From Candidatus Heimdallarchaeota archaeon (GTDB taxonomy: Archaea; Asgardarchaeota; Heimdallarchaeia; Hodarchaeales; Hodarchaeaceae), in assembly GCA_020353515.1 (NCBI GenBank), contig CP070695.1, positions 2,822,539-2,886,538 of the forward strand: a stretch of DNA of 64,000 nt, given 5' to 3'. The notes below the pieces were generated by a model. It worked only from the letters and a program-made list of their open reading frames with translations, did no database searches and was not told the DNA's origin. The position numbers and the translations under genes were made by a program. Shown piece after piece: positions 41,862 through 64,000 of this stretch (position 1 is its first letter; every line of letters begins with the position of its first letter).

Positions 41862-42286
41862 GAACTACTTATAAAGGATTTTTTTGTTTTTCCATGAGAA
41901 GGTGCTTCATACTCAACTTTTGACAAAAATTAGTCTTGGTGCGATTAGTAGGAGCTTCACATGTTTATTACAGTAGCCCTTTCTTTTTTTGAACTCCATC
42001 ACACAGTGGATATCACTGACGAGGCAATCACTTAGAGAAGGTTAGACATTTAGGAAAGAAAAGAAACCTTGACTTCAAGATAGTATCTTAGGCTTGGGGA
42101 GCATCAATAGCTATCTCAAAATGATCAGTAAAGAGCTCTTTATCTTCTTTTCTTCAAGGGTAGGATTTTTATATCTAATTAATCATGTGGAGAGAAGGAT
42201 ATCAATGAAAAGAACCTATCAAATATGTGATTTGTACAATAAGTGATACCAAGATTGGATATGAGAGACGAGGAACCCACAAGAAG

Positions 42287-47648: not shown

Positions 47649-47667
47649 ATATGATAATATCGACATA

Positions 47668-47785
47668 ATTTTCTGAAAATATTCAAAAAACGCACAAACA
47701 TCAAACCACTGCTCGTGTAATTGAAGATAATAACTCTTTAAGCCAACTGACGACAAATTTTTGGAAAATACTTAATTTCCAAACG
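47668..47785 (+). repeat. Dispersed intergenic repeat, near full-length copy
   Basis: ACATCAAACCACTGCTCGTGTAATTGAAG..ACTCTTTAAGCCAACTGACGA..GGAAAATACTTAATTTCC. Confidence 0.85.
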
Positions 47786-48262
47786 TTACAATCGAGTAAG
47801 AAATTTTTCTTTGAAGTCAGGATCATTTGGATTCAAAATTGGTACAATTCCTAAATTACCACGAAAATCGCTATCAAAAGTTATAAATAATGTAACCTGG
47901 GAAGCTAGAGCAATAGCTGCATGTAACGCGTCAGCTGCGTAAAGATTGTGGTCAAAAATTTGTTTTCGGGACACCATGATAGCAGATCGTGTTACAGGGA
48001 TAATTTTTAGTACTTCTTCTTCAGCCATTTCTCCAAGTTCAGACAGGAAGAAATCCAGAGCTATCTTTGCAGCTTTTTCTTCAATCTTTTCAAGATTGAC
48101 TTGTTTTTTTAAAGCAAGAAACATTTCAAGGATTGTCCATTCACAAGTAACCCCCTGAAACTTAGGAGTCAATTGATTGAGTATCCAGTCTGCAAGAGCG
48201 TTATTTTCAACAGGACAGTATGCGTTATAAAAAATATTTGTATCTAAGTACACCCCCATCAT
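47786..48262 (-). CDS. vapC: PIN-domain toxin (VapC-like)
   Basis: YLDTN, TILE, DALHAAIA, TFD. Confidence 0.9.
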   Translation of the reverse strand: MMGVYLDTNIFYNAYCPVENNALADWILNQLTPKFQGVTCEWTILEMFLALKKQVNLEKIEEKAAKIALDFFLSELGEMAEEEVLKIIPVTRSAIMVSRKQIFDHNLYAADALHAAIALASQVTLFITFDSDFRGNLGIVPILNPNDPDFKEKFLTRL

Positions 48263-48495
48263 TCTTCTCCCCGTACTGATCGAATAACTTCAACTCCATC
48301 TTGAAACGGGCCCTTCTGTTGACTCTGTAGATACTGTTTCAATTCCTTACGGTTCTTAATGCCTAATTTATCTTTAATATAAGCATATATGCCACCACGT
48401 ACCGCTTCACTTCTAGAATTGATGATTCCGTCTTTTATCAGTTGATCAATCCACTCTAAAAGCTCTTTGTCAATAGAAATGGAAATACTCGTCAT
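48259..48495 (-). CDS. Ribbon-helix-helix antitoxin
   Basis: ISISIDKELLEWID..SRSEAVR; overlaps the PIN gene. Confidence 0.9.
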   Translation of the reverse strand: MTSISISIDKELLEWIDQLIKDGIINSRSEAVRGGIYAYIKDKLGIKNRKELKQYLQSQQKGPFQDGVEVIRSVRGEE

Positions 48496-48655
48496 ATTTT
48501 CGCCCTAGAATTCGTACTATCAGAAATGTTATTATACTTGTAATAGCAAATCAGTATTATAAAAATGTTACTACTTATTTACAATACTAGTGTAAATTAA
48601 ATTGCTTCTTTTTAGATCTGATGATAACATTTGTGAAAAAGCTTAATTTCCATTC

Positions 48656-49054
48656 TCATTCATCAAGAAGAACTCGGAGTTTTTCTGTTAAAGCACGACT
48701 TAATGAATCGTCTTCCTTATCAACTCTGGCAAGGAGTTGTTCGAGAGAGGGTTTCCATCTGGGAATGAAAATAAACCGATCCATAATGTCATCAAGGGGG
48801 GAGATTGTATCGCTCAAAATATTCAAAGAAAGAGAATCCCTTTTTTCTCGTAAAACTTTGAGGAAAGGCTGGTAATCATTTAGTTCTTCCCATTGCTTCA
48901 GGATAAATGTTGATGTCTCATAAACACCTTCCCAATAGCTTTTGGTCGATTTTACATCTTTGAGAGGATCTGAAGATGATATCACAAAGTTGAGAGTATC
49001 AGCCTTGAGGCTTAAATCATCTTGAAATACCAAAAATAGCTGATACACTAACAA
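48656..49054 (-). CDS. Hypothetical protein (possibly a fragment)
   Basis: 132-aa ORF, no motif. Confidence 0.4.
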   Translation of the reverse strand: MLVYQLFLVFQDDLSLKADTLNFVISSSDPLKDVKSTKSYWEGVYETSTFILKQWEELNDYQPFLKVLREKRDSLSLNILSDTISPLDDIMDRFIFIPRWKPSLEQLLARVDKEDDSLSRALTEKLRVLLDE

Positions 49055-49166
49055 CTAAAATTGTCAAAGCAAACAGAGAAGGAATAACAATATTTGGGTT
49101 AGAAAAACCCAATTTCTAAGAATAGAGAGGTGAAAAAATCCTATAAAGGAAGAAAAGCTTATTTCA

Positions 49167-51353
49167 TTGTTGAAAACGAGGCGCTCCTTTGTGAAACAGA
49201 TCAAAAATCTAATCCTTCTCCTCCTCATAATGCTACAGGTTGTCTTGATCCCCCACACCGGCTTGATGGAGCAACCTCAAAGACAATTTACCGATAGAGA
49301 AACATCGCACTCATCCAACCATTCCAGATTACAAAAGAAAGATACAACTAACGCAGCGTATGAACCTCACTCACCCATAAGCATTATAGGTAATAGTGAT
49401 TTCATCGCTCAAGCTACCGTTGAAAACTGGTCTGGGAATGGAAGCACAAAAAACCCGTACATTATTGAGAGACTAGGGATAGGATCCGAAAATAGAATCT
49501 TAATTCTAATTCTATATACTGATGTCCATTTTCGAATACAGAACTGCTACCTAAACCAGGGGCGAATGGGAATATATTTATTCAGCGTAAAGAATGCACA
49601 GCTATCCAACAACATTGTCATTAACAACAATAAGTACGGAATTCATCTGGAAGACTCGGAAAATAATATTCTGTCAAATAACATTGTCATTAACAACAAT
49701 GAGGAGGGGATTTACCTGCGTGATTCAGCGAAGAATATCCTGGTAAACAATACCATCACCAGGAATTATTATCGTGGAATTGAAGTGAGATACTCAGAGA
49801 ACAATATCGTGACAAATAACACAGTCGTCAACAATCGATTATCGGGATTATGGTTTATCCATTCTCCCAATAACGCCCTCATTGGCAATACATTCACCAA
49901 TAATTTGAACGGGATAATGGTATGGTACTCAAATAACAGCTTTGTGGCGAAAAATACAGTCACCAATAACACTGAGGATGGTATTTATGTTTACGACTCT
50001 TCGAATTGCAAGGTGATTCGGAATCATGTCGCTAACAATAGTAGGAGGGGATTGTGGCTGTTAAGTCTGAGTGAGAATAACACAATCCAATTCAATAACT
50101 TTCAGGCAAATAATGATAGTGTGGTAGACAGTGGGTGGAAAAATATCTTCGAGCAGAACTATTGGAGTGACTGGACGAGTCCTGATGACAATGGAGACGG
50201 GATAGTTGACCAACCCTATCCAATCCATGAAGAGAATGTTGACCCCTATCCATTGGTTGAACCAAACTCAATTCCACCAGGACTAGACCCTCATTTAATA
50301 GCTCTCTATATCACTCCAAATGGGGGTGAAATTCTCCAAGGCACCATTGATATCCAATGGGGAATATTTGATTTAGGGAACCATGAAATGACCTATACAG
50401 TTTCATATTCAGAGAATGGAGGAGGAACATGGACTCAACTGACAACAGGATTAAAAGTCCCGGGTTATAGCTGGGATGTCACAGACATGAATGGCTCCCA
50501 ATATCTTGTTCAGGTCAATGCCAGCTGTACAGAAGGAGCAAGGGTCGAAATCACATCAAGAGCGCCTTTTACCATATACGACAACCACTTCGAGATAAAG
50601 GCATTCACCATCTTGGTGCCTAAGGGAGGAAAAATATACTATGGATCTGTCACGATTCAGTGGACGTCTGCAGTAGACCGTTTTAGCCATGAGGTGAGTT
50701 ATACAGTATCATATTCAGCAGATGATGGTTTTTCCTGGAATACCTTAACAACAAACCTAGTTCATACAACCTATGAGTGGGACACCACCACAGTCATGAA
50801 TGGCTCCCAGTATCTGATCCGTATCAAGGCTCGCTGTTCGGAAGGGAAATCACGGGAAAGCACATCGGCACCCTTTACAATTAAGAATCCACACGCTATT
50901 CAACCACTCACCCTCCTGACGCCTGAGGGAGGAAAAACATACTTTAACCCTATCATAATTCACTGGACTCCAGCAGTAAGCCTCTTCAACCATGAGGTGA
51001 CATATGTGATCTCATATTCAGCAGATAATGGCAACACCTGGAAGACCTTAACATCCAACCTAAATACAACAACCTTTGTCTGGGACAGTAAAACAGAAAA
51101 AGATAGCTCCCAGTATCTTATACAAGTCAATGCCAGCTGTGAGGAGGGGGCATGGTACATAGCCACCTCTAATGCCTTTACGATCGATAATATACCCCGA
51201 ACAACCAATTTTCCGATAGTACAGACTTCAACACATCCCATGCGGACGGATACCCCCCTAAACCTGCTACCTCTACTCCAGCTCCTCAGTCCAGTTGTTA
51301 TCTTAACCTTCCTGGTGACCCTGGTAACCATTATTCGCCGTCAACAGATATGA
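49167..51353 (+). CDS. NosD/beta-helix surface protein with three Ig-like repeats and C-terminal TM
   Basis: WSGNGSTKNPY, NN-rich repeats, NYWSDW, 3x (P.GG...W...Y...YS.D.G.TW...WD...Y.I.V.A.C.EG). Confidence 0.9.
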   Translation: MLKTRRSFVKQIKNLILLLLIMLQVVLIPHTGLMEQPQRQFTDRETSHSSNHSRLQKKDTTNAAYEPHSPISIIGNSDFIAQATVENWSGNGSTKNPYIIERLGIGSENRILILILYTDVHFRIQNCYLNQGRMGIYLFSVKNAQLSNNIVINNNKYGIHLEDSENNILSNNIVINNNEEGIYLRDSAKNILVNNTITRNYYRGIEVRYSENNIVTNNTVVNNRLSGLWFIHSPNNALIGNTFTNNLNGIMVWYSNNSFVAKNTVTNNTEDGIYVYDSSNCKVIRNHVANNSRRGLWLLSLSENNTIQFNNFQANNDSVVDSGWKNIFEQNYWSDWTSPDDNGDGIVDQPYPIHEENVDPYPLVEPNSIPPGLDPHLIALYITPNGGEILQGTIDIQWGIFDLGNHEMTYTVSYSENGGGTWTQLTTGLKVPGYSWDVTDMNGSQYLVQVNASCTEGARVEITSRAPFTIYDNHFEIKAFTILVPKGGKIYYGSVTIQWTSAVDRFSHEVSYTVSYSADDGFSWNTLTTNLVHTTYEWDTTTVMNGSQYLIRIKARCSEGKSRESTSAPFTIKNPHAIQPLTLLTPEGGKTYFNPIIIHWTPAVSLFNHEVTYVISYSADNGNTWKTLTSNLNTTTFVWDSKTEKDSSQYLIQVNASCEEGAWYIATSNAFTIDNIPRTTNFPIVQTSTHPMRTDTPLNLLPLLQLLSPVVILTFLVTLVTIIRRQQI

Positions 51354-51387
51354 TATGTCAGAGATGATGAACAATCCATTCGAGAAA

Positions 51388-51464
51388 ATTCCCCGAAAAT
51401 AAACACAAAACGTACAGAGATTAGACCAACACCACTCTAGGAGAAGCTCCTGACTCCTAAAAGC
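51388..51464 (+). repeat. Dispersed intergenic repeat, degenerate copy
   Basis: CCCCGAAAATAAACACAAAACGTACAGA...GAAGCTCCTGACTCCTAAAAGC. Confidence 0.7.
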
Positions 51465-51530
51465 TATTAATTTGTGTAAATGGTAACACTTATAATACTT
51501 GGTGTGAAAGTACTACCAGGTGTAGTCTAA

Positions 51531-51809
51531 ATGTCAACAGTGAAATTTGCAGAGACAGAAAAATTAAAGCAACTTCAAGCACGATTATACCTCTTAACCA
51601 ATCAGCATTTAACTCAACAGGAAATCTTAGAGTATGCAGTAAATATCCTTACGGAGAATATTGATTTACTTGTTGAAAGGTTACAAGCAGGATCAAAAAC
51701 TTTCACATCAGAGGAAATAAAAAAAATTCAAGCAAAAGCATCCCATTGGGGAGAAGATACCAAAGATCTCTCAAGTACAATCGATGAGACACTCTATGGA
51801 AAGGAATGA
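51531..51809 (+). CDS. Putative antitoxin
   Basis: Small gene overlapping a PIN gene; C-terminal DLSSTIDETLYG. Confidence 0.8.
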   Translation: MSTVKFAETEKLKQLQARLYLLTNQHLTQQEILEYAVNILTENIDLLVERLQAGSKTFTSEEIKKIQAKASHWGEDTKDLSSTIDETLYGKE

Positions 51810-52228
51810 CAATGTCTATCTTAATAGATACAGGCTTTTTCGTAGCGTTGGTTAATAAGGACGACAATAATCATGAAAGAGCGGATAGTTTGCTAGAGGA
51901 GTTATTGACAGGAAAATGGGGAGCACGAATCACAACAGATTATATCCTAGACGAAGCAATAACTGTTACTTGGGCTCGGACAAAGAAAAAAACATTAGTT
52001 AAGGATGTTTACGACCTCTTTCTTGGATCGGAAGCGATCTGCTTATTGCAACCGATCCCTCATGAGTTACTACGTGAGATCTGGAAATATTTTCAACGAT
52101 ACAGCACTCTAAAAAGACCATTGAGTTTTACAGACTGTTCACTCCTCGCGTACGCAAAGGAAAAGGGGATCGATCATCTCCTAAGCTTTGATGAGGAATT
52201 CAATGGACTAATGAGTAGAATCCAGTAA
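51806..52228 (+). CDS. vapC: PIN-domain toxin (VapC-like)
   Basis: IDTGFFVAL, ILDE, LSFTDC, SFDEEF. Confidence 0.92.
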   Translation: MTMSILIDTGFFVALVNKDDNNHERADSLLEELLTGKWGARITTDYILDEAITVTWARTKKKTLVKDVYDLFLGSEAICLLQPIPHELLREIWKYFQRYSTLKRPLSFTDCSLLAYAKEKGIDHLLSFDEEFNGLMSRIQ

Positions 52229-52321
52229 ACAATTCAGAACCAATTATTGGGACTCTACTTGAAATTCATTCCTCCGTAAGCTATCTAATGATAGATTTTA
52301 TGAAATGATCGCATGCCCTGA

Positions 52322-52399
52322 AACTGAAGCTCGTGACTCCTTAAGCCAACTGACGAAAGATTTTTGGGAAAAAACTCAATTTCCACTAAGTCGCCCTTG
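52322..52399 (+). repeat. Dispersed intergenic repeat, right half
   Basis: GAAGCTCGTGACTCCTTAAGCCAACTGACGA...CTCAATTTCCACTAAGTCGCCCTTG. Confidence 0.85.
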
Positions 52400-52669
52400 A
52401 GCGCAGCTCCTCTCGTAATAAGAGTGTCTTCCTCTCATAGATCCAACACGTCTTTGGTTTCTTGTTTATAAACATAAGAGGTTACAATACTAATTGTTAC
52501 GAGTGCTAAAATAACTCCTTTTCGCAAAGTCACTCCTTTCTTCACCATTTGCATCCACCTATTAAAATCAAACTCACATTTTTCACAATGAAATCGCAAT
52601 TACATTCCTGAAAACCCTTTTGAAGTCTAAGATCTTGTTAGGAATGAGTAATCTAGTTCGAGATGAATA

Positions 52670-53689
52670 ATGATGTGGGGAAAGTATACTGCAATTGTCA
52701 CAATCTTATTCCTTATTTTCGGAATGATGATTACCAAGTGCTCAGCTAATGTTCTCCCTGCTTCTGATGATGCTGCAGATGGGGGGTTATTGCCTGACCG
52801 TCTCTCCTTCTCTCAGTGGTTACAGTCGAATCGATCAATCTTTTTGAAAGCGGAAACAATCAATGTTACTTTGGATCAAGAGAAAGCCCATGTAAATGCT
52901 TTATATATACTTAAAAATGAAGCAGTAAACGAAACTTCTCTGGATATTGCATTACCTTTCTCAAGAACTCCCTCAAATGTTCAACTGATGATTGATGGAA
53001 AAGAAAAGACCTATTCTTGGAACGAAATTAAAGAAATTATAGTTCCTCATACTTACCCCGCTACTGATTCCGTTCACTCCATTAATGATCCTAAGGAGTC
53101 TATTGGATTTTCTTTATCTTTCAATGGATCTGAAGAAAAACGAGTTCATGTCATGTATCAGCGTGAGTATACGATAACAGACGGTCTTTACGATCATAAA
53201 ATTGTTTCTGAGTTTCGATACATCATCGGGACTTCTCGCTGGTGGAAATATCCTCTTGAATCAGCTCATTTTGAGTTTTGGGTGTTGAAAAGAACATTCG
53301 ACAAAGGAACTGTAGTAGTTTTAGGTAACCAAATGATATCCCCTAGTGATATCCCCTTTTTCATCAACTCCACAACAAAGGATTATGTGGGTTTGTCAGT
53401 GGATTATAGGAATTGGATGCCTGTTGATCAGGATTTTTTGGTTCTTTATTGGGAGAGAGCGAAACCATTTTTTGATACTCGTTTGGGGACATTAGTACAA
53501 TTGGGGGGTGTTTTTATATCTTGTACTATAGGCTTAATAGGTAGTATTTGGGTAACAAAACGATTTAAGGATCACACCCGAGTCAAATACGTATCTATTC
53601 CTGCGATTATACTCTTCCTACTGCTGACACTCTGGTTTCTCCTGTTAACAGCAATATACGTTTTTTTCATTGGCATTTTCCATTCCTAG
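52670..53689 (+). CDS. Membrane-anchored exported protein (DUF4424-like)
   Basis: Signal peptide, LKAETINV, YIIGTSRWW, two C-terminal TMs. Confidence 0.65.
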   Translation: MMWGKYTAIVTILFLIFGMMITKCSANVLPASDDAADGGLLPDRLSFSQWLQSNRSIFLKAETINVTLDQEKAHVNALYILKNEAVNETSLDIALPFSRTPSNVQLMIDGKEKTYSWNEIKEIIVPHTYPATDSVHSINDPKESIGFSLSFNGSEEKRVHVMYQREYTITDGLYDHKIVSEFRYIIGTSRWWKYPLESAHFEFWVLKRTFDKGTVVVLGNQMISPSDIPFFINSTTKDYVGLSVDYRNWMPVDQDFLVLYWERAKPFFDTRLGTLVQLGGVFISCTIGLIGSIWVTKRFKDHTRVKYVSIPAIILFLLLTLWFLLLTAIYVFFIGIFHS

Positions 53690-53731
53690 AGTGCTAGATG
53701 TCCTAGGTGACAACGAAATTCCGAAAGGTAA

Positions 53732-54148
53732 TTAGCCAACCTCCTGTAAGAGAGTAGGTCGTTCAGACGAAAATTTCGCCTGAAGGGCGTTCTTGTCTGC
53801 GCGATCAAAGGCAGCATGAATATACCCCGATTCCTGAATACCAATTTCGAGAAAATTATAGGTTAATTGGCCATAACAGCTTTGAGAGAACTTAAAGGCA
53901 GTATGGATGTTATCAATAGCAATATGAAATAACCATTCAATAACTACCTTATCTCCCCAACCAGAACCTTTTTTCCTGTTCCAATATCTGCGAATTGTAT
54001 TGGCATCGTTTCTAGTATAGGCGTGGCATTCGATTCGATGATCAGCTCCTAAGACTTCTGCCGGGGAATCAATCCATTGATGCAATTCTTCAAACGCAAA
54101 TCCCGTACACTGCTTGCTAATCGCACAATGTGCTCCTAAATTTGGCAT
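53732..54148 (-). CDS. Hypothetical His-rich protein (DUF6915-like)
   Basis: HCAIS..LHQWID..DHRIECH..HIAID. Confidence 0.6.
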   Translation of the reverse strand: MPNLGAHCAISKQCTGFAFEELHQWIDSPAEVLGADHRIECHAYTRNDANTIRRYWNRKKGSGWGDKVVIEWLFHIAIDNIHTAFKFSQSCYGQLTYNFLEIGIQESGYIHAAFDRADKNALQAKFSSERPTLLQEVG

Positions 54149-54282
54149 GATTAAGACCTACCATTTCTTATTGCACTCTAACTAGCTTTCCTTGGCAATA
54201 TGGACACAAAGATACACCTGATTTGCTACTACTATCATAACAATCCCCACACTCACACCCCAGTGGTTCAATTATTCTGTGG

Positions 54283-55740
54283 TCACAGATAGTTTTTATG
54301 GGTTCTAATAAAATCGATTATTTTGGCTTGCTCAACTTCAGATAATATTTTATTGACATGATTCCAGAGAATTTCTTCCGAATGACTCATGGGAACAACA
54401 ACTTCTTTCAAGCGTGCTTGAACATGGGCGGGGAGCTTTAGTAGATCATAATTGTGCAATGCTTTCTTGTGAAAATCGTCCCCAGAAATTTGAACATTAC
54501 TTACACTCATTGTGAAATTATCTAGAATATCAATGTATATTTCTCGAGTTCCCCACCATGGACGATTGATATTTTGCATTTGACTCCAAAGCCATGTCGC
54601 ATTAAATACGAAGACGTGCTCTAGACGCGTTCTAGCAATTAATGCCTCAATGTCATCTAATAATTTCTCCAGCTCTATTAGGAGACTCTCTATCTCCTCA
54701 GGTTGGTCTTCTTTTATACTTTTAATTAGTTCTCTAAGATTTGTTTTATCGTTCCGTCCCCCAAGTAAGATTATCTTTCCATTGACTTTATGAATTTTTC
54801 TTAGATTTGGGTCGTCTAGCCCCCGAACTCTATACTTCAATGTTCCAATTGAGTGACTTAATGATATATTACAATATTGAATATAGCACGGTATTGAATT
54901 GATTTTAACCAGTGCCCAGTTTGTAGGTGTTGAAGGCCAATGGGCCCAGTTTGTTGGTTTCTCGTAATCCCTAACCTCAATCCCCATTTCATTTAGGATG
55001 TTGTAAAATTCATGCCATAAATTTGGTTCTTTCGTCTTACTAAAAGTCAGTTTGCCTTCTTCATTTACCCTGTTCATTCCATCACTCCTCAGATCGATTT
55101 TCTCAGTAATGGGATGGGATATTTTCAGTGGGGGAATTGGTGGTGGAGGTAGTTCAGTAATTACTTTCTTTATCACCTCTGGGAAATCAACTGATACAAC
55201 AGGTATTGATTGTGTAATTTTTGGTAATGGTTTTACTGTTGGGAGTTTTATTGTGGGTTCAATGGGTTTTTGTGGAACAATTTCTGTGATCATTTTTGGT
55301 TTTATTCTGGGAAGAGGTTTCTGAATGGGTGGTTCTTTGATCGCATTCCATAGGTCTTTAATCTTTAAAACCAATTCAGATTCGTGACTAAGACCAAGTT
55401 CAGCACGCCAAAAGTTCTCAATAAAGCCTTCGAGACAAGGATCTCCAAAGGCAGAAAACTCGATAAAAAATGAGTAATCAGTTCCAGTTTCATATTTGCT
55501 ATAAATTAATCTGGATTTATTAACTCCTTCCAACAAATCAGCTACTGGGAGTTGAGGAAATTGTTTCCTGAAGTCACGGTTAAACTGTTCTATATGCTCC
55601 TTCATGACGAGTGATCTTCTCGGTGGGGTAGGTACTGTTGACTGTGGTTTCTTGCGATACCGCCTAGATAAATACCAATGTAAGACAATCGATGAGAGGA
55701 CTGCCCCTAGGATTTTAAGGAAAAGATCTTCTAGACTCAC
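54283..55740 (-). CDS. Hypothetical protein with N-terminal TM and Pro/Lys-rich linker
   Basis: 485-aa ORF. Confidence 0.7.
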   Translation of the reverse strand: MSLEDLFLKILGAVLSSIVLHWYLSRRYRKKPQSTVPTPPRRSLVMKEHIEQFNRDFRKQFPQLPVADLLEGVNKSRLIYSKYETGTDYSFFIEFSAFGDPCLEGFIENFWRAELGLSHESELVLKIKDLWNAIKEPPIQKPLPRIKPKMITEIVPQKPIEPTIKLPTVKPLPKITQSIPVVSVDFPEVIKKVITELPPPPIPPLKISHPITEKIDLRSDGMNRVNEEGKLTFSKTKEPNLWHEFYNILNEMGIEVRDYEKPTNWAHWPSTPTNWALVKINSIPCYIQYCNISLSHSIGTLKYRVRGLDDPNLRKIHKVNGKIILLGGRNDKTNLRELIKSIKEDQPEEIESLLIELEKLLDDIEALIARTRLEHVFVFNATWLWSQMQNINRPWWGTREIYIDILDNFTMSVSNVQISGDDFHKKALHNYDLLKLPAHVQARLKEVVVPMSHSEEILWNHVNKILSEVEQAKIIDFIRTHKNYL

Positions 55741-55829
55741 TCAGCACTCATCCCAAATGGGTAATCAGTTTGGATTTTACACACAAAGGAATTATTATAG
55801 TTATTCATTATACATTCACTATCGACCAA

Positions 55830-55893
55830 AATTGAAGTTGCTGTCTCCTAAAGCCATTTGACGATAGATTTTGGGAAAAATCTTAATTTCCAC
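55830..55893 (+). repeat. Dispersed intergenic repeat, right half
   Basis: AATTGAAGTTGCTGTCTCCTAAAGCCATTTGACGATAGATTTTGGGAAAAATCTTAATTTCCAC. Confidence 0.8.
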
Positions 55894-55990
55894 AATTTTT
55901 CAGAAAAATTAGCATTTGGGCGATTAGTGGCAGTATCCAATATAAATTTACAAAGAGTTTCTAGCTTAGAGGGAACTTGTAACCGATTTA

Positions 55991-56061
55991 ATTTTCCCGA
56001 AAATAAACAAAAAGCGTACAGACATCAGATCACTGCTCGTGTAATTGAAGTTCCTGACTCC
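55991..56061 (+). repeat. Dispersed intergenic repeat, left half
   Basis: TTTCCCGAAAATAAACAAAAAGCGTACAGACATCAGATCACTGCTCGTGTAATTGAAGTTCCTGACTCC. Confidence 0.85.
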
Positions 56062-56190
56062 GAATGCCCTGAAATTACTGGCAGCACATATCGCTTGGCG
56101 GTACCCTTCCGGATAACCCGTAGACTAGAGGCGCTTACACCCCGTTTTTCTCACAGATCCAACACGAAAAGAAGACTAATTAAAAAAATT

Positions 56191-57879
56191 TCAACTATCT
56201 AATTTTTCATTTAATCGTCTGAGGAACACGAGAAAAGTGCAAAAAAAAGGAAAAAGAAGGAGAAGCCATCCTGGTGATGATGCAGATGATATCGAATGAC
56301 TGGTAGTCATTGAGGTAGTTGTTGAATTAGCAAATAGTTCAATGGAATAACTATCTTTAACCCGCGCCTTATTCTGGAATTCTGACGAATCAATTGTGAG
56401 AATGGTATAACAAATTTCAGAACCAGTCGGAAATGGTCCGATAATACCTTGGTATCGATTATCAGAAGTAAGATTCATTTCAAGAGTCTCTTCATTAGAT
56501 AACAGTATTTCTTCGTTAATAACTTGGTAATGTAAGAACACATTGGATATACCTGATTCATCAGTGATTGTGGCACTAATAATACATTTATCCTCAGCGG
56601 CAGGTGAAAATGGATTTCGTGTGACGTTTATAATATTAGGGGCCACCAGGTCTGTCTCGATAGGAATAGAAGATCCAGAAACAGCAAATTGCAATAATGG
56701 ATGGGGATCAAAAGCGACTGCAGTACCTGGGATGGAGTAAATTCCAATCCCATCATAATCAGACCAGTAGTTCCATCCATAACGACTATTGAACCCTTTG
56801 TCATACGCCTGAGGGGAAGAAGCCGAAGCTCCATTCTCAATAAAGGTATTATGGTGAACAAGGTTGTTTTGGCACAAATCACCATGTTTTTCTAATCCAG
56901 CAATTTGAATTCCATAAAGGTAATTTTTTTGGATCAAGTTCCAACAAATTGTGTTACTAGAGGAACCCGAAAGATGGATGCCGTCCTCATCATTTTGAGA
57001 TAGCGTATTATTAGCAACAAGACACTTGGTTGCGTGTTCAAGGAAGATGCCATGTCTAGTCGTTTGGTTGTTGAAAGTGCTATTAGCGACAACGATAAAA
57101 GCGCAATAATAAACATAGAGGCCTATTCCATTTCGATTACTTGTGTTATTGACTACAATGGAGAATCCTGAAAAACTAGTAGTAATACCATACAGAGGAT
57201 TTGAATTGCAGACATTATGTGATATATGGCAGGAACGTGAATTAGTAATGACAATACCAATCCCATTTTGATTACAGGTGTTATTAGATATAATTGAAGA
57301 GGGAGAATACCCCACATTGATACCATAATGGTTGTTGAAGCACGAATTATTAGTAACAAACGTAGATACGGCTTCCCAAATGATTATCCCAAATCCAATC
57401 CCTTGTGTTTGACAAGAATTGTTCTGAACAGTAGTGGTTCCATTAGTAGTGTTTTTAATTTGAATTCCATAATAAACAGGAGGATATTCCTCTCCATAAG
57501 GTGTCGAAGCTTCAGGGAGAGAAGTAATTTGTTTATAGATCACCAAGATCCAACAGTTCTGAATGACGAAATGTTTGGAGGTCCTACTGATGGCAATACC
57601 ATGCGTCTCAACGGTTGTAATATTCCATCCCTCTAAAATAAATGGATCCTTCTCTGTTCCCAGCCCTCTGGCCGCCACTGCAGCTAGTTCAGTATCAGAA
57701 GTGATACTTATAGGTTCGTGAGGAGTAAGATCATTAGAATATGCTGACTTTTGCGGATGAGACCACTTTGGAGGACGGAGGACATAACCACTCACGAAAA
57801 AAGAGGCCAAAAAAAGGGAACCCAACAATAAAAAGACTCCCATGACCATAATTCGCTTCAACGAAGCCATATCTCCCAC
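56191..57879 (-). CDS. NosD/beta-helix surface protein with SPGW-TM C-terminus
   Basis: GLGTEKDPF, NN repeats, NYWSDY, S/T linker-SSPGW-TM-RR. Confidence 0.88.
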   Translation of the reverse strand: MGDMASLKRIMVMGVFLLLGSLFLASFFVSGYVLRPPKWSHPQKSAYSNDLTPHEPISITSDTELAAVAARGLGTEKDPFILEGWNITTVETHGIAISRTSKHFVIQNCWILVIYKQITSLPEASTPYGEEYPPVYYGIQIKNTTNGTTTVQNNSCQTQGIGFGIIIWEAVSTFVTNNSCFNNHYGINVGYSPSSIISNNTCNQNGIGIVITNSRSCHISHNVCNSNPLYGITTSFSGFSIVVNNTSNRNGIGLYVYYCAFIVVANSTFNNQTTRHGIFLEHATKCLVANNTLSQNDEDGIHLSGSSSNTICWNLIQKNYLYGIQIAGLEKHGDLCQNNLVHHNTFIENGASASSPQAYDKGFNSRYGWNYWSDYDGIGIYSIPGTAVAFDPHPLLQFAVSGSSIPIETDLVAPNIINVTRNPFSPAAEDKCIISATITDESGISNVFLHYQVINEEILLSNEETLEMNLTSDNRYQGIIGPFPTGSEICYTILTIDSSEFQNKARVKDSYSIELFANSTTTSMTTSHSISSASSPGWLLLLFPFFCTFLVFLRRLNEKLDS

Positions 57880-58000
57880 AGATGAATTATTTTGGTTATG
57901 TTATAGAATCATTTCACTTCTTAAATAACTAGCTATCCTATCAGAGTTAATATCAAATTTTCCTCAAAGGGTATATCATGCGATAATAGGGGTCTAAAAA

Positions 58001-58134
58001 CCGAAAATAGAACAACAGCTGACAGAACTCAGCCCGATGCTCGTGTAATTGAAATTAATTGAGATTAATGACTCCTTAAGCCAATTGACGATAGAATTTT
58101 CTAAAAATACTCAATTTCCAATAAGTTGCCCTTG
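58001..58134 (+). repeat. Dispersed intergenic repeat, full-length copy with small internal duplication
   Basis: CCGAAAATAG...TGCTCGTGTAATTGAAATTAATTGAGA...ACTCCTTAAGCCAATTGACGATAG...CTCAATTTCCAATAAGTTGCCCTTG. Confidence 0.85.
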
Positions 58135-58294
58135 TGGCAGCAAGATTCCACATCGATGAATAAGTTTGCACGATGATAGGCCATAGTTTATGGGGAAAAA
58201 AAGAATCAAGAATAATTTCAACACGGGTAACCTCTATTGTGATAAGGGGTATTTTTAAAACATAACATAACGTTTCATTAATTAGGGGAGCAAA

Positions 58295-59329
58295 ATGTGC
58301 TTGAAAAAAGCGACTCAGAAATTAAAAACAAAAGGGAGTTCTCCTCTCCTTGTGGTTCTAGGATTAAATTTAATAGTAATATTAAGTGGGTGTATTCAAA
58401 GTTCACCTGTATTTGACCCAGAACAAGCTGAATTGTACAATCCAATAAGTAACCAAACAGAAAGACTTCGGATTGTGAACCATAATGATTCTGGAAAGAG
58501 TTTTTACCATCAAAACGAGATAGAAATTCTGGTGGGTCTACGGGACACCAAAGGAAATCCAGGCGTGAACTATTCACTACTATTAAAGGTTGTTTATACT
58601 TTTTATGGCGAAACAGAGTCTGAGAATATATCAGATAAATTGGGCATCCTTCTTGTGACGAATGATTCGGGGATTGCCCAATCTACATTCGCTTATGATC
58701 AATACACATGGCCTCATGGCGTGAATACCGAGGGATATTTTGAAATTTCGAGTAACAAGATACCCAATTCAATCGCAATATCATCAATATTTACCTTTAC
58801 TTACTATCATAGCCAGATTTCCCGTAATTCAACTTCTGAAGGAGGAGTAGAAGTCATTTACAATTTTGAAAACAGGAGTCTATATGAGGAAGCAATCTCA
58901 CTAGGAAATGACAGTAATGATTTTGTAGATTGGACAAAGACTTATGGAGAATATTATCCTCCAATTATCAATGCAGCAAGAATTAACACCCACTCCCGAC
59001 TTGTAGGTGCTCCCTATATTGAGTTTATGTACAAAGCCTGGGCTTTCTATTTCGATCCTCTGAACCTATCCTATCAGCAAATTAGAGCGACATGGAAAGA
59101 ATATATCAAGGTAGGATTAAATGATTTTTCTGAGGATGACTGGTTATCAACAGGATCTCTCTCAAGGGTTAACGTATCAAGTGGATGGTTAATCCTTCAG
59201 TATATGTACGAAAGTTATTTTGTAAATGGACTTGAGGGAGGAATTGACTGGTGGTATCAAATCGCAATCTTAGATGATGATTTTCACCTCAAATGGCTTC
59301 TATTTCGATTTGATTATGTAGAATCCTAA
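58295..59329 (+). CDS. Putative lipoprotein
   Basis: Hydrophobic signal ending in LSGC lipobox. Confidence 0.65.
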   Translation: MCLKKATQKLKTKGSSPLLVVLGLNLIVILSGCIQSSPVFDPEQAELYNPISNQTERLRIVNHNDSGKSFYHQNEIEILVGLRDTKGNPGVNYSLLLKVVYTFYGETESENISDKLGILLVTNDSGIAQSTFAYDQYTWPHGVNTEGYFEISSNKIPNSIAISSIFTFTYYHSQISRNSTSEGGVEVIYNFENRSLYEEAISLGNDSNDFVDWTKTYGEYYPPIINAARINTHSRLVGAPYIEFMYKAWAFYFDPLNLSYQQIRATWKEYIKVGLNDFSEDDWLSTGSLSRVNVSSGWLILQYMYESYFVNGLEGGIDWWYQIAILDDDFHLKWLLFRFDYVES

Positions 59330-59352
59330 TGTCAAGAAATTCAGTCAGTCAA

Positions 59353-59427
59353 ATTTCCCTCCGAAAATAGCAATGAAGCGTACAAACATCAGACCGAATG
59401 CTCGTTAATTGAAGCTAACGACTCCTT
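59353..59427 (+). repeat. Dispersed intergenic repeat, left half
   Basis: TCCGAAAATAGCAATGAAGCGTACAAACATCAGACCGAATGCTCGTTAATTGAAGCTAACGACTCCTT. Confidence 0.85.
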
Positions 59428-59566
59428 TTAGGGTGTGCAAGTTTTCGGAAAAAATGAGCATAGAACTAAGTCGAATGCTCAGAATTGTGGAAAATTAAAA
59501 AGAAGTGAGAACAAAAATAAGATATTATCCGCTTTTTGTATAAAAAATTATATGTGAGAAATAAAA

Positions 59567-60226
59567 TCAAAGATCCATCTCTTCAATCAAATCGATCTTT
59601 CCAATTCCGCCCCTAATTCTTTTCCCTGTTATCGGATCTTTCATAGCCATCAAATGAAACATAAAACTATCATTAAAACGAGTTGAAACATTACTTCGTG
59701 CAAACTCTTTCTCTACGGAAATATGTATTACTCTCCCACATACGGTGATATTGGTGCTTCCTGGTATCAATTCCTTTTCCCATTCAAACTGACATTCAAG
59801 TTTTAAGAAGCTTTCTTTAATTCTTGGGATCATCATAGTTTCTGCTTTCTCTAGAGTAAATCCCGAATTTCTGATTTCATCAGTCTCAATTTCATTCTCC
59901 GAAATTGTTTTTTTGATTTGGTCTATATATTTGGAGGACAAAAAGTTTACACAAAAAATTCTATCTCTTTTAATATTCTGATAGGTATGACTGCTTTTTA
60001 ATAATCCTGATATTATTACGAAATAATTATCTCCTTCTCCCGTAAAACTAGACCAACCTTCCAACGCAGCGTTCGGAGTCCCATCTTCTTTAAAAGTAGT
60101 AACTAGGTAAATTACATGAGGGATAGATGCTATATAAGCCATCCACGGTATAATCTGATATTGACCGTCCCAATCTTCAGTAAAATTATCAGGTTTTTTT
60201 TCATTGTATTCAAAATACATTTTCAA
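59567..60226 (-). CDS. Flavin reductase-like protein
   Basis: LVTT..DGTPNAA, HTYQNI, FCVN, PRIKES..LEC. Confidence 0.9.
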   Translation of the reverse strand: MKMYFEYNEKKPDNFTEDWDGQYQIIPWMAYIASIPHVIYLVTTFKEDGTPNAALEGWSSFTGEGDNYFVIISGLLKSSHTYQNIKRDRIFCVNFLSSKYIDQIKKTISENEIETDEIRNSGFTLEKAETMMIPRIKESFLKLECQFEWEKELIPGSTNITVCGRVIHISVEKEFARSNVSTRFNDSFMFHLMAMKDPITGKRIRGGIGKIDLIEEMDL

Positions 60227-60452
60227 TTTCCCTTTTTACTTTCTGTAATTAATAAAGATTATATGATTTAACAATTTATAGGATTTGAATAGATATCCAT
60301 TTTTTTCTTATGCCTTTTTTCTACTATATAGTCTTTTCCAATTGTAATCCTCCAATCAACTGTGAATATCATCAAGAGAACAATAATTCTGAGGCTGAAT
60401 TCATCCTCTCTGCCTCGATTCTGAAAATCCCATCCGAAATCAAATTTTCAAT

Positions 60453-60486
60453 CTCCGAAAATTAAAAACCAGACATCAGACCGAAT
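60453..60486 (+). repeat. Dispersed intergenic repeat, short remnant
   Basis: CTCCGAAAATT..CAGACATCAGACCGAAT. Confidence 0.6.
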
Positions 60487-61067
60487 AATTTCATCCAGAA
60501 ATTCTTTCTGAAAAACATCAGAAAATTCAAGATTTTCATTCACTAGAATTTCACCCCCAATTCAAAAACCGTGTGTAACTTCTGCTGGAATATAATAAAT
60601 TCTTAAGAGCGTACCAACGAGAAAAGCGACAAAAACAAGCGGGACAAGAATTTCTATCAATCGATAGTCGATCAGCGGATCTATTACCAACCAGAAAAAA
60701 TACTCCAAACAGGAAAACAATGCTTCTGGATCTTAGCAGGGGATCCGACAGATGACAGACGACATCTGAGTCTGGTGTTGGATAGAATCTTTGAGTTAGT
60801 GTTACATCCTAAGATAACACTGATGCCCGTACCGAATAATGAGGCCGCGATTGCCTACGCGATTCATACGATTATAGGTGGAGTGGTCTTTTTCTGCCAA
60901 TTCAATCACTTTCATTAGTTCTACTCATGAAAATCTTATTTGAAAAATGACTTTTACAACTGTAGGATTAGGAAATATTTGATATTCTTGATTTTCCATT
61001 TACAACCCACAATATACCCAAATAATTCTTTTTTTTATAATCCAAAAAAATATTTTTCTTCTGCTAT

Positions 61068-61364
61068 TTGTGTCTCCACAATCCACTTCCTTTAAATTCC
61101 TCGAAGAAAGAAACCGAGGTTTATTCACCTACTTTCCTCAAGATTCTCAAAAGATTGGAGGGGACTGGAAATTGGATCGATTACGCTATTAGTGAAGCAC
61201 CTCCTATTAAAAAAGAATTTTACGAAGAGATTACTCCAGAAGAAGGACAATCATTAGCAGAGGAGTTAGGACTTTCCTATTACGAGACCAGACCAACTGA
61301 TAAAAAAATTAGTGGGCAAATCTTTCACGATTGGAGTCTTAGAGTGTTACAAAAGGAGGTTTAA
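61068..61364 (+). pseudogene. C-terminal fragment of a small GTPase-like gene
   Basis: ITPEEGQSLAEELGLSYYET resembles VTLQEGQSIAQELGADYFEM of 63407-63949. Confidence 0.55.
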
Positions 61365-61507
61365 AGCAACGAAATTGACCCCATACATTCTCGCTCGACT
61401 TGGTGAGAAAGCTAACACATTAATACTAGAAAAAGTTAAAAAGAGAAAGTGGGATGTAAATTCTTACAATTTCAACGTTTTTTCCTAAACAAAGGATCGT
61501 TTACGTC

Positions 61508-63328
61508 ATGTCAAAGCCTAAGAAAGTCCAATTTTCTGTATTTCTGAGTTTAACCTTATTAATGTTGGTTCTATCATCGCTAGTCATTTTTTCAGACAAT
61601 TTCACTTTAGATAATACACTTGGGATAACGGATCGTGTCCATACAATTCGAGAACCATTTTGGGATTTAACGGGTACACCTATTATTATAGATGACGCCT
61701 TCCCAGATTATAGTTGGGATACAACTGCTACACTAAATCAATGGTGTAGTGGATCGGGAACATGGGATGATCCCTTTATTTTGGAAAATATACTTATGAA
61801 TGGATCCGAGGCGAGTAGGTGTATAACCATCCGAAATTCTAATGTTTACTTTTGTATTCGGAATTGTAAAATTGAGAACTCCATATGGAATAGCTTTGGA
61901 ATTTATTTGGAAGATGTTGCGAATGGAACGATACAGAATAATTCATTCCGTAATAACAATCGTGTGATAGTTCTTGGGGGTTGTAATAATAACACTATCG
62001 GGAATAATTCTTTTTACAATGATGAAACAGGGATCAGTATTTGGTACTCGGTCAATACTACCATTGAATACAACACGATTTATGATAGTGGCTATGCAGC
62101 AATAAGTCTGTCTCAAAACACAAATACAACTCTTTATGGAAATAAAATGTATGAATGTGGAATTGATCTTCTTCCGATGAATGATTTTGACACGATAACA
62201 ATAGATACTTCAAATATTATTAATGAAAAACCAGTCTATTATTATGTGAATGAAGCTAGATTGACTACCACCAATTTCACTAATGCAGGTCAGATTCTAC
62301 TAATCAATTGCTCAAAGTGTCTTATTTTCAACACTGCCCTCTCCCATTCATCGGAAGGTATTAAGTTAATATCCTCAGATAATAATATAATATCAAATAA
62401 TGTATTTTCCCAAAATAGACGCATGGGGATAAATCTTTTTGGTAGTAATAATAATACTATTTCAGAAAATTCATTTTACAATGAGGAGGATGGAGAGGGC
62501 ATATTTGTTTGGATGTCCGATAAGAATGTAATAGATAGGAATAACATTTCAATAGGGATCTATGGTTCGGGGATTTCTATTGATAGTGGTAATGATACTC
62601 AAATTTCTAACAATAGAATTATCAATATAGACCCATACGATGAGATCAGAAATAATTGGACCCAAGGAGTTGCTATATATGGGTGTACAAATACATCAAT
62701 CACAAATAACTATGTATACAAACAGGGTTTTGGATACAGTGTCGAGGGTTCTCAAAATACCTCGATATCAGAAAATGTTGGGGAATTCTGTAATCACGGA
62801 ATGTATCTGCAAAATGCAAATATTGCACGCATCAGTGGAAATAAGCTCTTAAACTGCCAGGACAAGTGTTTATCTGAAGAAAATAGCACAGAAACGATTT
62901 ATCAAAGAAATTATTGTAATACTGCCATCAAAATTCTAACTCCATCACCAAAAGAAATATTCGGTCAAGAATCACCCAGCTTTAATCTGCAGGTGAATCT
63001 CCCCAACACCCCGGAGATTCTGTGGTACACAATGAATAACGGAGAAACAAATATTACATGTGGGCTTAGTGATATAATAGATCAAATAATGTGGACAACA
63101 CTACCAGATGGACCGGTTGTCATTCAATTTTATGCAATGGATGCTGCAAAGAATATTGGATCAGGATTTATTGAAGTCTCGAAACAAACACATTCACCAA
63201 CGACCACTTTTGGATCATATAATTCTACTTACACAACATCAAAGAGCTCTGGATTTTCACTAGGTTACATGGTTATGGTTTTATTTCTGCTCTTTGTTCT
63301 TGGGACAAAAAAGAAGAATCACATTTGA
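61508..63328 (+). CDS. NosD/beta-helix surface protein with SGF-TM C-terminus
   Basis: WCSGSGTWDDPF, NN repeats, KPVYYY, GQILL, S/T linker-SSGF-TM-KKK. Confidence 0.9.
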   Translation: MSKPKKVQFSVFLSLTLLMLVLSSLVIFSDNFTLDNTLGITDRVHTIREPFWDLTGTPIIIDDAFPDYSWDTTATLNQWCSGSGTWDDPFILENILMNGSEASRCITIRNSNVYFCIRNCKIENSIWNSFGIYLEDVANGTIQNNSFRNNNRVIVLGGCNNNTIGNNSFYNDETGISIWYSVNTTIEYNTIYDSGYAAISLSQNTNTTLYGNKMYECGIDLLPMNDFDTITIDTSNIINEKPVYYYVNEARLTTTNFTNAGQILLINCSKCLIFNTALSHSSEGIKLISSDNNIISNNVFSQNRRMGINLFGSNNNTISENSFYNEEDGEGIFVWMSDKNVIDRNNISIGIYGSGISIDSGNDTQISNNRIINIDPYDEIRNNWTQGVAIYGCTNTSITNNYVYKQGFGYSVEGSQNTSISENVGEFCNHGMYLQNANIARISGNKLLNCQDKCLSEENSTETIYQRNYCNTAIKILTPSPKEIFGQESPSFNLQVNLPNTPEILWYTMNNGETNITCGLSDIIDQIMWTTLPDGPVVIQFYAMDAAKNIGSGFIEVSKQTHSPTTTFGSYNSTYTTSKSSGFSLGYMVMVLFLLFVLGTKKKNHI

Positions 63329-63339
63329 GATTTTGAAAA

Positions 63340-63406
63340 CTCGTTTAATTGAAGCTGCTGACTCCTTAAAAATATCTGACGATAGTTCCGCTTAATTTCC
63401 ACACGG
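63340..63406 (+). repeat. Dispersed intergenic repeat, right half
   Basis: CTCGTTTAATTGAAGCTGCTGACTCCTTAA...CTGACGATAG...CTTAATTTCCAC. Confidence 0.8.
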
Positions 63407-63949
63407 TTAGCTTGTTTTTAGAGCTATTACTCTTTTCACAAGTAATCTTAAGATTCTATCTAAAGCCTGAAGATCAGTAGCAGCCATCTCAAAATAGTCT
63501 GCACCAAGCTCCTGAGCGATCGATTGACCTTCCTGCAGAGTAACTGTCTCAGGATCATCATCATGAAGACCGATAAACGCAACAGGAACAGTGGGATCAG
63601 GGATGTGTTTTCTAAATTCGTGATAGTACTCAATTGTTGACTCAACAAAACTATTATTACTTTTTGAAAAAGCAAAAACAGCTGCAGAAGCTCCACGAAT
63701 ATAGTTGGGAAATCTTGGATTCTTTACCCCCTCGAAAACAGGATCTGTTGAGATATCGACCAAAATGAGTTTTATGTTATTGTTATCCATATTAATCTGT
63801 TTAGTAGGAATTTGAACACCTAAAGACTTAGTAAAGGGATCAGGTATTCTACCAGCATAGGAATGTAAAGATTGGGTTAGTAGGTTATCAGGAAGACTGA
63901 GAAAACAAATTTTAAGTAGATATTCGTCCCCTACCATTTGTACCTCCAC
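63407..63949 (-). CDS. Rab/Ras-like small GTPase homolog with degenerate G motifs
   Basis: YLLKICFL, KSLGV, IKLILVD, YIRGASAAVFAFS, PVAFIG, EGQSIAQELGADYFE. Confidence 0.8.
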   Translation of the reverse strand: MEVQMVGDEYLLKICFLSLPDNLLTQSLHSYAGRIPDPFTKSLGVQIPTKQINMDNNNIKLILVDISTDPVFEGVKNPRFPNYIRGASAAVFAFSKSNNSFVESTIEYYHEFRKHIPDPTVPVAFIGLHDDDPETVTLQEGQSIAQELGADYFEMAATDLQALDRILRLLVKRVIALKTS

Positions 63950-63965
63950 ATTATACTTCCATTTT

Positions 63966-64000
63966 TTTCCTCCGAAAAGCCAAAAAAGCGTACAGACATC
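63966..64000 (+). repeat. Dispersed intergenic repeat, left end (runs off window)
   Basis: TCCTCCGAAAAGCCAAAAAAGCGTACAGACATC. Confidence 0.8.

Follow-up and report, generated by a model that had tools for sequence, protein, structure and literature searches.

The window, a stretch of 64,000 nucleotides from a Hodarchaeales archaeon, carries from position 47666 to its end a series of repeats that, read on the minus strand, are copies of the last ~10-25 nt of the 23S rRNA gene together with its ~110-nt 3′ trailer. These orphan 23S tails probably form a cassette platform, in which they split the accessory genes of an island behind the 23S gene into modules of one to three genes.

The origin of the repeat can be read from a relative, on contig G005:C44, where a real 23S gene runs directly into it. 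There, the last base of the gene is 2089, corresponding to model position 2987 of 2987, and the repeat occupies 2083-2233 in reverse orientation; one tail stands behind the gene, and the contig then ends. Five copies from the window, taken as reverse complements, line up with this gene end and trailer and with orphan tails that bear 23S fragments. Some tails in G008, G003 and G010 retain ~300 nt of 23S, and fragments from model positions 2721-2973 abut array tails at G008:C8 27759-28068 and 46367-46669, at G003:C184 257-566 and on G010:C12. The 23S remnants within the window are ~20 nt or shorter, and an Rfam search of the window at gathering score matched only a tRNA (1067-1171). The direct repeats are copies of an RNA-gene 3′ end, and this makes tandem accretion at a stable-RNA 3′ end, rather than an integron, the nearest parallel. 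No paper describing cassette arrays built on 23S tails was found.

Between 47666 and 64000, a scan with the full repeat model (R1), the source of all bit scores and E values given for the window, detects ten significant copies or half copies of the ~120-nt unit in the same orientation, accompanied by two recognizable fragments; the eight stronger copies have E values of 1e-14 to 3e-27. Every copy is intergenic and all lie on one strand, given here as minus, the sense of 23S. An earlier note on this DNA, whose consensus matches on the plus strand, had made the same two observations, and a copy is present at each of the ten positions it named.

The series starts with a near-full tail at 47666-47787 (90.7 bits, E 3e-27), made up of the trailer and the terminal few nt of 23S and aligned to the real G005 gene end and trailer. 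The right part of a weak partial tail follows at 48582-48654 (22.3 bits, E 6e-6). The partial tail at 51386-51470 (left part and core, E 8e-15) is attached to a toxin-antitoxin cassette and is of the G011/G019 sequence type; it bears the variant ACAGAGATTAGACC...GAGAAG, and all four of its nearest neighbours are G011 tails. Two partial tails abut within 52229-52391, a weak one at 52229-52305 (E 1e-6) and a core with right part at 52308-52391 (E 2e-19), with a degenerate 23S-end remnant behind them. The tail at 55828-55934 combines core and right part (55828-55899, E 3e-17) with ~20 nt of residual 23S 3′ end at ~55912-55934, recognized by its 23S-end motif, and a left part with core lies at 55990-56070 (E 5e-17). 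A second near-full tail (57999-58127; 84.7 bits, E 2e-25), continued to 58150 by a degenerate 23S-end remnant, contains a 10-bp internal duplication that recurs in G008:C8 46232-46350. Farther right are a left part with core at 59354-59453 (E 2e-15), a degenerate left-part fragment below significance at 60453-60538 (7.4 bits, E 0.28) with the conserved CAGACATCAGACC block present, and a core with right part at 63321-63408 (E 1e-14), whose last bases are used in the stop codon of a Ras-like gene. The left end of another tail is cut by the contig end at 63966-64000, next to a 100-N spacer. In positions 1-47000 the scan finds no significant copy, in agreement with the earlier impression of the first 47 kb; the sole trace is a relic tail core, also on the minus strand, at 36936-36971 between FGGY kinase and PadR genes (E 0.058).

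The genes set between these tails are as heterogeneous as the earlier note had described them, with Ras-like GTPases, beta-helix surface proteins and PIN toxin pairs. By Pfam assignment, the minus-strand genes of 47786-49054 comprise a PIN toxin (47786-48262), a ribbon-helix-helix antitoxin (48259-48495) and a 132-aa ORF without assignment (48656-49054). On the plus strand, a beta-helix/NosD surface protein with fn3-like repeats (49167-51353) precedes an antitoxin-like ORF and a PIN toxin (51479-52237), likewise assigned by Pfam. Three ORFs without family match span 52670-55740 (339 aa on the plus strand, 138 and 485 aa on the minus strand), followed by a NosD/beta-helix protein (56191-57879, minus), a 344-aa ORF without assignment (plus) and a flavin-reductase-like protein (minus) within 58295-60226, and a further beta-helix/NosD protein (61508-63328, plus). 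A Ras-family small GTPase-like protein (63407-63949, minus) has tails tight on both sides. The ORFs at 47786-48262 and 63407-63949 are indeed the two minus-strand genes that end at a repeat edge. Across the arrays, 106 ORFs match Pfam and fall into 84 families (10 of the 106 are Ras-family GTPases), while 30 single-gene cassettes represent 21 protein families.

Tails are organized in same-strand arrays in 18 of 21 genomes of the genus, with a median spacing of 1.1 kb and a maximum of 27 copies in 49 kb. On G008:C8, 26 of 27 copies share one strand; G011:C3 and G017:C126 hold 15 and 13 copies. The genome-wide mapping proposed in the earlier note finds co-oriented copies confined to variable islands, rather than copies scattered in both orientations amid a stable gene order, and the ordinary intergenic regions of the genome are free of tails. 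Most arrays, including that of the window, reach a contig end on the side expected for the 23S gene. The window's genome (G000), 114 contigs joined by 100-N spacers, has no 23S gene in its assembly; judging from relatives, the gene is expected past the window's right end, where it would anchor the array. The two further repeat loci of this genome are contigs of 5-6 kb, and because the assembly consists of joined contigs, a count of three loci in the genome carries no meaning. Tail direction is independent of that of the flanking genes (the four configurations occur 17, 15, 14 and 8 times); of the single-gene cassettes, 23 run in the 23S sense and 7 against it, but the ratio for all array genes is 62:64. 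Genes join tails at the 23S-end remnant, the right end, the core or the left block, and no single crossover point is visible.

Cassette cargo is almost wholly different from species to species, so that gene content between repeats does vary among related species, and some cassettes are found again across species in other neighbourhoods and at other array positions. The toxin-antitoxin cassette at 51479-52237 recurs in G011:C3 among other neighbours, with 83% nucleotide identity and 90% and 80% amino acid identity. Cassettes common to G008 and G011 are 92% identical in nucleotides and those common to G008 and G017 are 91% identical, compared with 79% for xerA, the single core gene compared. Tail sequence types are lineage-specific, and the only G011-type tail of G000 adjoins the cassette that is common to G011. 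The FGGY kinase/PadR joint, occupied in G000 by a single relic core, contains ~9 kb of cassettes and no fewer than three tails in G017.

The earlier note had read the repeats as sites of an integron-like gene-capture array. The cassette-array part of that reading stands, with cassette joints, co-oriented copies, differing content and recurring cassettes, but the repeats are not attC-like and no IntI accompanies them in the assembled DNA. A true integron, or a CALIN (a cluster of attC sites without an integrase), would fit the array layout and the toxin-antitoxin cassettes, and Ghaly et al. (2022; PMC9668308) reported attC clusters in Asgard genomes, including a Hodarchaeum genome with 3 attC sites and one integrase that has no attC beside it. 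However, the consensus fold of 47 copies reaches only -1.6 kcal/mol on the plus strand, and folding of 40 copies with DNA parameters gives mean z values of 0.03 and -0.1, the repeat ends pairing in 0 of 40 copies on the plus strand and 5 of 40 on the minus strand. Neither analysis contains the imperfect hairpin of attC (R″-L″ with L′-R′). The complementarity once proposed between the left and right ends is not conserved, its right partner lying in an optional segment that about half of the 45 aligned copies listed do not have. The ends of 80 aligned copies bear no RYYYAAC or GTTRRRY boxes, and no IntI was found, in line with the earlier note, to which neither canonical GTTRRRY boxes nor an integrase were evident; against the integron integrase model TIGR02249, the recombinases of G000 score 162.6 and 69.5 bits, with a cut-off of 265. 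With no hairpin, no R″/R′ boxes and no IntI, attC identity is ruled out, and a true integron or CALIN, refuted as well by genes running in both directions and by the rRNA origin of the unit, has almost no probability left. The second suggestion of the earlier note, relics of a MITE or a structured RNA, also falls away. The repeats are not a MITE, as terminal inverted repeats are not conserved, copies occur only within arrays and nearly all those of a contig share one strand; nor do they constitute an independent structured RNA family.

Tandem accretion driven by an integrase is a possible but rather doubtful alternative. A tyrosine integrase would have placed integrative elements, whose attP copied the 23S tail, at the 3′ end of the gene and so duplicated the tail, and these elements would later have lost the integrase and shrunk; or small cassettes would still be moved in trans by an Xer-like integrase encoded elsewhere. 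Duplication of a stable-RNA 3′ end is the hallmark of attB/attP identity segments, as established for tRNA and tmRNA islands. On G003:C83, a partial tail is followed, 7 nt on, by a 37-codon C-terminal remnant of an Xer-like tyrosine recombinase. The remnant is 95% identical in nucleotides (xerA, 79%) to an intact gene of G000 (C1:737657-738529), which lies 190 bp from its contig start; whole or fragmentary genes of this class are present in 11 of the 22 genus genomes. This remnant is, however, the only trace of an integrase, present or former, met beside the tails. The ~250 kb of assembled arrays, their end toward 23S being unassembled, contain no intact recombinase. XerA and the gene named above are the only tyrosine recombinases of G000, both off the array's contig, and this genome has no serine recombinase, Y1 transposase, IS110 transposase or Cas1. 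Intact genes of the Xer-like class have no tails nearby, the sequence of the recombinase gene at the break point does not resemble the tail, and G017 and G014 possess arrays but lack any intact member of the class. No Xer/dif-type inverted core site (~28 nt, two arms) is present in the tail, whose sole palindrome is an AT-rich 18-mer, and a dif-like motif noted close to the recombinase gene of a relative occurs in the window no more often than expected (10 occurrences, 10.6 expected). Finally, it is difficult to see 27 units of ~1 kb in a single array as decayed autonomous elements.

It is improbable that there is no capture platform and that local duplications around the rRNA gene, through unequal crossing-over or replication slippage, left the tails behind as by-products, kept as oligo-T terminators while differential loss and island turnover produced the species differences. 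The T5 runs on both strands of the tail and the AT-rich palindrome in its optional segment agree with this view, as do the heterogeneous junction positions and the closeness of gene 3′ ends to tails (median 26-41 bp, versus the 105-154 bp kept by 5′ ends). Yet by-products would hardly account for unrelated genes in the same slot (21 families in the 30 single-gene cassettes), for cassettes that reappear elsewhere in other species at an identity well above that of the core gene, for a foreign-type tail moving with its cassette, or for ordinary intergenic regions devoid of tails.

The preferred reading is a docking platform behind the 23S gene, with the tail as a docking site common to the genus; the part it plays where the rRNA transcript ends presumably keeps its master copy constant. 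Two tails would recombine to release a circle made of one module plus one tail, and this circle could insert at any tail, whether in its own cell or in that of a related species. Arrays would in this way grow, shrink and swap modules with tail direction preserved throughout, and imprecise events would generate half copies. General homologous recombination acting across the 120-400-nt tails seems a likelier source of the crossover than a dedicated integrase. We infer the circles, the enzyme and the 23S gene beside the window's array, the last from relatives, as this anchor is not assembled there. Other points weigh against the docking platform. Tails inside one genome are on average 69% alike and make a poor substrate for homologous recombination; joints occur at several positions, common cassettes do not always end at a tail, and one population variant breaks ~350 bp from the nearest tail. 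The first arrival of unrelated genes between tails is left unexplained.

Tandem genomic islands at tRNA and tmRNA 3′ ends are known, for example the ssrA-specific islands of Dehalococcoides. There too, same-direction repeats are spare RNA-gene 3′ ends that split heterogeneous accessory blocks beside the gene, with content varying between close relatives. In contrast, the target here is the 23S tail, the duplicated piece measures 120-400 nt and is mostly trailer, and the units are tiny (median ~1 kb, 1-3 genes), integrase-free and stacked by the dozens in an array. R1 and R2 elements, retrotransposons that insert inside eukaryotic 28S genes, also use a large-subunit rRNA gene as a safe, conserved landing site, whereas the 23S-tail cargo consists of cellular accessory genes behind the gene, with no reverse transcriptase. 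Composite SCC islands of staphylococci are similarly stacked in tandem at one gene end (the rlmH 3′ end) with same-direction attachment copies, and many of their units lack a recombinase of their own and rely on one in trans. Their sites, however, are ~18-nt repeats, their units are much larger, and they have dedicated Ccr serine recombinases, a type missing from G000. Sedentary chromosomal integrons and CALIN, such as the Vibrio super-integron with its ~120-bp VCR and archaeal integrons (PMC9668308), resemble the arrays in their ~1-kb cassettes, similar co-oriented sites of ~120 nt, and heterogeneous, largely uncharacterized, species-specific cargo that includes toxin-antitoxin pairs. The 23S-tail arrays differ from them in having no attC hairpin, core boxes or IntI, in an rRNA-derived site, and in cassettes that run in both directions with upstream regions of their own.

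If correct, this would be a new design of cassette array, in which the tail of an rRNA gene serves as a common landing site without integron hairpins or an integrase. Such arrays would explain why metagenome assemblies in the genus break at 23S genes and at islands, and the orphan tail would provide a simple marker for the variable gene pool. The host belongs to the archaeal group closest to eukaryotes, and the Ras-rich cargo would offer a concrete mechanism by which ‘eukaryotic signature’ genes could expand and be exchanged. More tentatively, Hodarchaeales may practise integrase-independent gene capture, with the 23S tail as a genus-wide dock and small self-expressed cassettes traded between species through the cells' own recombination machinery, and this may be a main route by which these archaea expand and exchange Ras-like GTPases and surface proteins.

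The repeat near the right end of the window is a copy of the 3′ end of 23S rRNA together with its trailer; read on the minus strand, the unit comprises the last ~10-25 nt of 23S followed by ~110 nt of trailer. No 23S gene is assembled in G000, the genome carrying the window. In G005, of the same genus, the 23S gene on contig C44 ends at base 2089, the last model position, and bases 2083-2233 are occupied by the repeat in reverse orientation. The reverse complements of five window copies align block for block with this 23S end and trailer. Many copies are followed directly on their right by a motif that, once reverse-complemented, matches the last ~20 nt of 23S; the copy at 55828 retains it at ~55912-55934. 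The motif was also considered as a tRNA 5′ fragment, and none of the 36 tRNAs found matches it. Within arrays of three other genomes of the genus (G008:C8, G003:C184 and G010:C12), orphan 23S fragments (model positions 2721-2973) adjoin copies of the unit, hereafter tails. Overall, tails retain 0, ~20 or ~300 nt of 23S. The G005 alignment and the fragments beside tails together show a unit made of 23S end plus trailer. Such orphan fragments were not seen in 36 genomes of the class outside the genus, with only three candidates scored per genome. The 23S gene itself is expected beyond the window's right end, with its transcription heading in the window's direction.

Each position proposed in the earlier note (47668, 51388, 52322, 55830, 55991, 58001, 59353, 60453, 63340 and 63966) yielded a copy when the window was searched by repeat finding, with a profile and with a full covariance model. 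Eight copies reach E-values of 1e-14 to 3e-27 in the covariance-model scan; two further copies, at 48582-48654 and 52229-52305, are weak yet significant. The copy at 60453 is a degenerate fragment, and the window end truncates the one at 63966. As had been described, the copies are intergenic and on one strand throughout the window, and the minus-strand genes at 47786 and 63407 terminate within the final bases of the repeat. The first 47 kb, reported to hold no convincing copy, is indeed empty apart from one relic core at 36936-36971. The window occupies the right-hand end of a contig of 308 kb, and this contig terminates within a repeat copy. Because the G000 file is a concatenation of 114 contigs with 100-N spacers between them, its GC skew is uninformative; the 20 kb that follow the window in this file belong to a different contig and contain no copies. 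Elsewhere in G000, copies occur only on a 5-kb and a 6-kb contig.

The identities suggested earlier for the repeat, namely attC site, MITE or structured RNA, all gave way. It has no Rfam match, no consensus fold and no covariation, a folding signal is absent on both strands (mean z ~0 for 40 copies, DNA parameters), and pairing between the ends is rare. The complementarity noted between left and right ends involves an optional AT-rich palindrome, a segment missing from many copies. It is thus not general, and the repeat does not qualify as attC. Nor does it qualify as a MITE, because no terminal inverted repeats are conserved, copies occur only in arrays, and those of any one contig keep to one strand. 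As a small protein-coding unit it fails as well, all frames being closed in many copies and the sole frame open in the consensus being interrupted at the core by TGA or TAA variants; the repeat reads as non-coding. A promoter element is disfavored by gaps between left end and gene start that span -9 to 125 nt, and by the independence of tail and flanking-gene direction, whose four configurations number 17, 15, 14 and 8.

The tails delimit small blocks of accessory genes, or cassettes, at a median tail-to-tail spacing of 1.1 kb. Genes sit close against tails at their 3′ ends and keep 105-154 bp clear at their 5′ ends, so each cassette seems to come with an upstream region of its own. Single-gene cassettes in the 23S sense outnumber those in the opposite sense by 23 to 7, and the 30 represent 21 protein families. 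A tandem array of GTPase paralogues does not account for this pattern, since GTPases make up only 5 of the 23 cassettes in the 23S sense. Across arrays, 106 ORFs fall into 84 Pfam families, the commonest being Ras-family GTPases (10), beta-helix/NosD proteins (4) and PIN toxins (3). The window itself carries two PIN toxin pairs, three beta-helix proteins, a flavin reductase, a Ras-like protein and several genes without assignment. No base-composition anomaly was found, and none of ten array-region proteins matched anti-phage defence models. In G008:C8 (L045), two tandem Ras-like genes (40839-41381 and 41431-41967) both run into the conserved left block of a tail, which supplies their last codons and stop.

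A 513-aa family, frequent in the islands, matches no Pfam entry, its only look-alikes being HTH-like, and has multiple copies in G000 (window 3279-4820, 11688-13220 and 44021-45562; also C1:325976-327514). It is found in 22 of 22 genus genomes, with as many as 10 copies per genome, and its members often share a contig with a tail array. It was considered as a tail-linked factor and set aside, being present also in genomes without this tail and thus not tracking it phyletically. A nucleotidyltransferase and HEPN gene pair at 42735-43887, resembling a toxin-antitoxin module, is conserved with G011:C3; there the tail array follows directly, and in G000 two more genes come first. Beta-lactamase-fold proteins lie at island edges both in the window (39582-41861) and in G011:C3 (L109 1583-3790), the G011 genome having one of them fused to WD40 repeats.

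The view of the region as a cassette-like array held up in comparisons between species. Genes flanking the island share 71-92% amino acid identity between G000 and G017, which have almost no cassettes in common, and the site of one relic core in G000 is occupied in G017 by 9 kb containing three or more tails. Cassettes also recur in other neighborhoods: a toxin-antitoxin cassette of the window is found again in G011 among other neighbors, a 160-aa cassette is 92% identical in nucleotides between G008 and G011, and a 152-aa cassette 91% between G008 and G017. The core gene xerA is 79% identical between cassette-sharing species. Scattering in both orientations with stable gene order was not seen; arrays are same-strand and their cassettes differ between species. 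Tail types follow lineage, one occurring in G011 and G019 and another in G000, G003, G008 and G017. The sole G011-type tail in G000 (51386-51470), whose four nearest neighbors are all G011 tails, is joined to the shared toxin-antitoxin cassette. A foreign-type tail attached to a shared cassette points to cassette and tail traveling together between lineages.

Genes and tails are joined at several positions, which, together with the variable length of 23S retained, favors homology-dependent crossover within the long tails as the way cassettes would move. The main rival is a Xer-like integrase acting in trans. The earlier note saw no evident integrase; G000 encodes two tyrosine recombinases on other contigs, XerA and a divergent Xer-like protein, neither of which reaches the integron-integrase cut-off. 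Across ~250 kb of arrays, whose 23S-side ends (the place of the integrase in an integron) are unassembled in G000, G008:C8 and G017:C126, the only trace of a recombinase is a 37-codon C-terminal Xer-like remnant (G003:C83 951-1062, L014). It starts 7 nt past a partial tail, and its 111 nt are 95% identical to the end of the G000 Xer-like gene, against 79% for xerA. A split, SSV-type integrase with an internal attachment site was rejected, as the Xer-like gene and the tail share no similarity at the break. No tails lie close to intact copies of this gene, and its flanks carry neither attachment repeats nor a tRNA gene. G000 has no serine recombinase, Y1 transposase, IS110 transposase or Cas1, and its one TnpB is far away.

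In G000 the Xer-like gene is part of a two-gene unit (C1:737253-738529; a 135-aa ORF and the 290-aa recombinase) 190 bp from a contig start, and N- and C-terminal fragments of the family occur in several genus genomes. A dif-like palindrome with CCAACG lies upstream of the Xer-like recombinase operon in G021:C94 (L084 ~2830-2860); the motif is not enriched in the window (10 found, 10.6 expected).

Among known systems, tandem accretion at the 3′ end of a stable-RNA gene is the closest kind, and the architecture resembles that of a sedentary integron. The tail arrays differ from both in their 23S-tail target, in what kind of repeat they use and how long it is, and in their tiny units without integrase and with mixed gene directions. 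The classical attC integrons that Ghaly et al. 2022 (PMC9668308) describe from Asgard genomes are a different feature; a Hodarchaeum is among those genomes, with only three attC sites. A literature search found no paper describing rRNA-tail cassettes.

With a sequence-only model, the tail was detected in 18 of 21 other genus genomes, in long same-strand arrays. In G008:C8 a 49-kb stretch contains 27 copies, 26 of which share a strand; the counts for G011:C3 and G017:C126 are 15 and 13. The only inverted copy seen in the G008:C8 array, at 7575-7663 (L043), sets the left part of a tail head-to-head with an inverted left part, possibly an inversion scar. When 185,579 species genomes were scanned for the pattern, several matches per contig occurred only in MAGs labelled Hodarchaeota or Promethearchaeota, the remaining matches being single and at about the chance rate estimated beforehand. 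Metagenome matches came from few samples, and no copies were found in viral contigs. In G001, one of the genus members without this tail type, a different trailer follows the real 23S gene (C57, L112 3230-3420), and a ~35-nt segment of that trailer occurs twice within 200 nt. Two further G001 contigs carry orphan 23S 3′ fragments, suggesting that a parallel tail system exists there. G002 and G013 likewise lack this tail type and have orphan 23S 3′ fragments. Orphan fragments in these three genomes indicate that the phenomenon is probably genus-wide, with trailers that have diverged.
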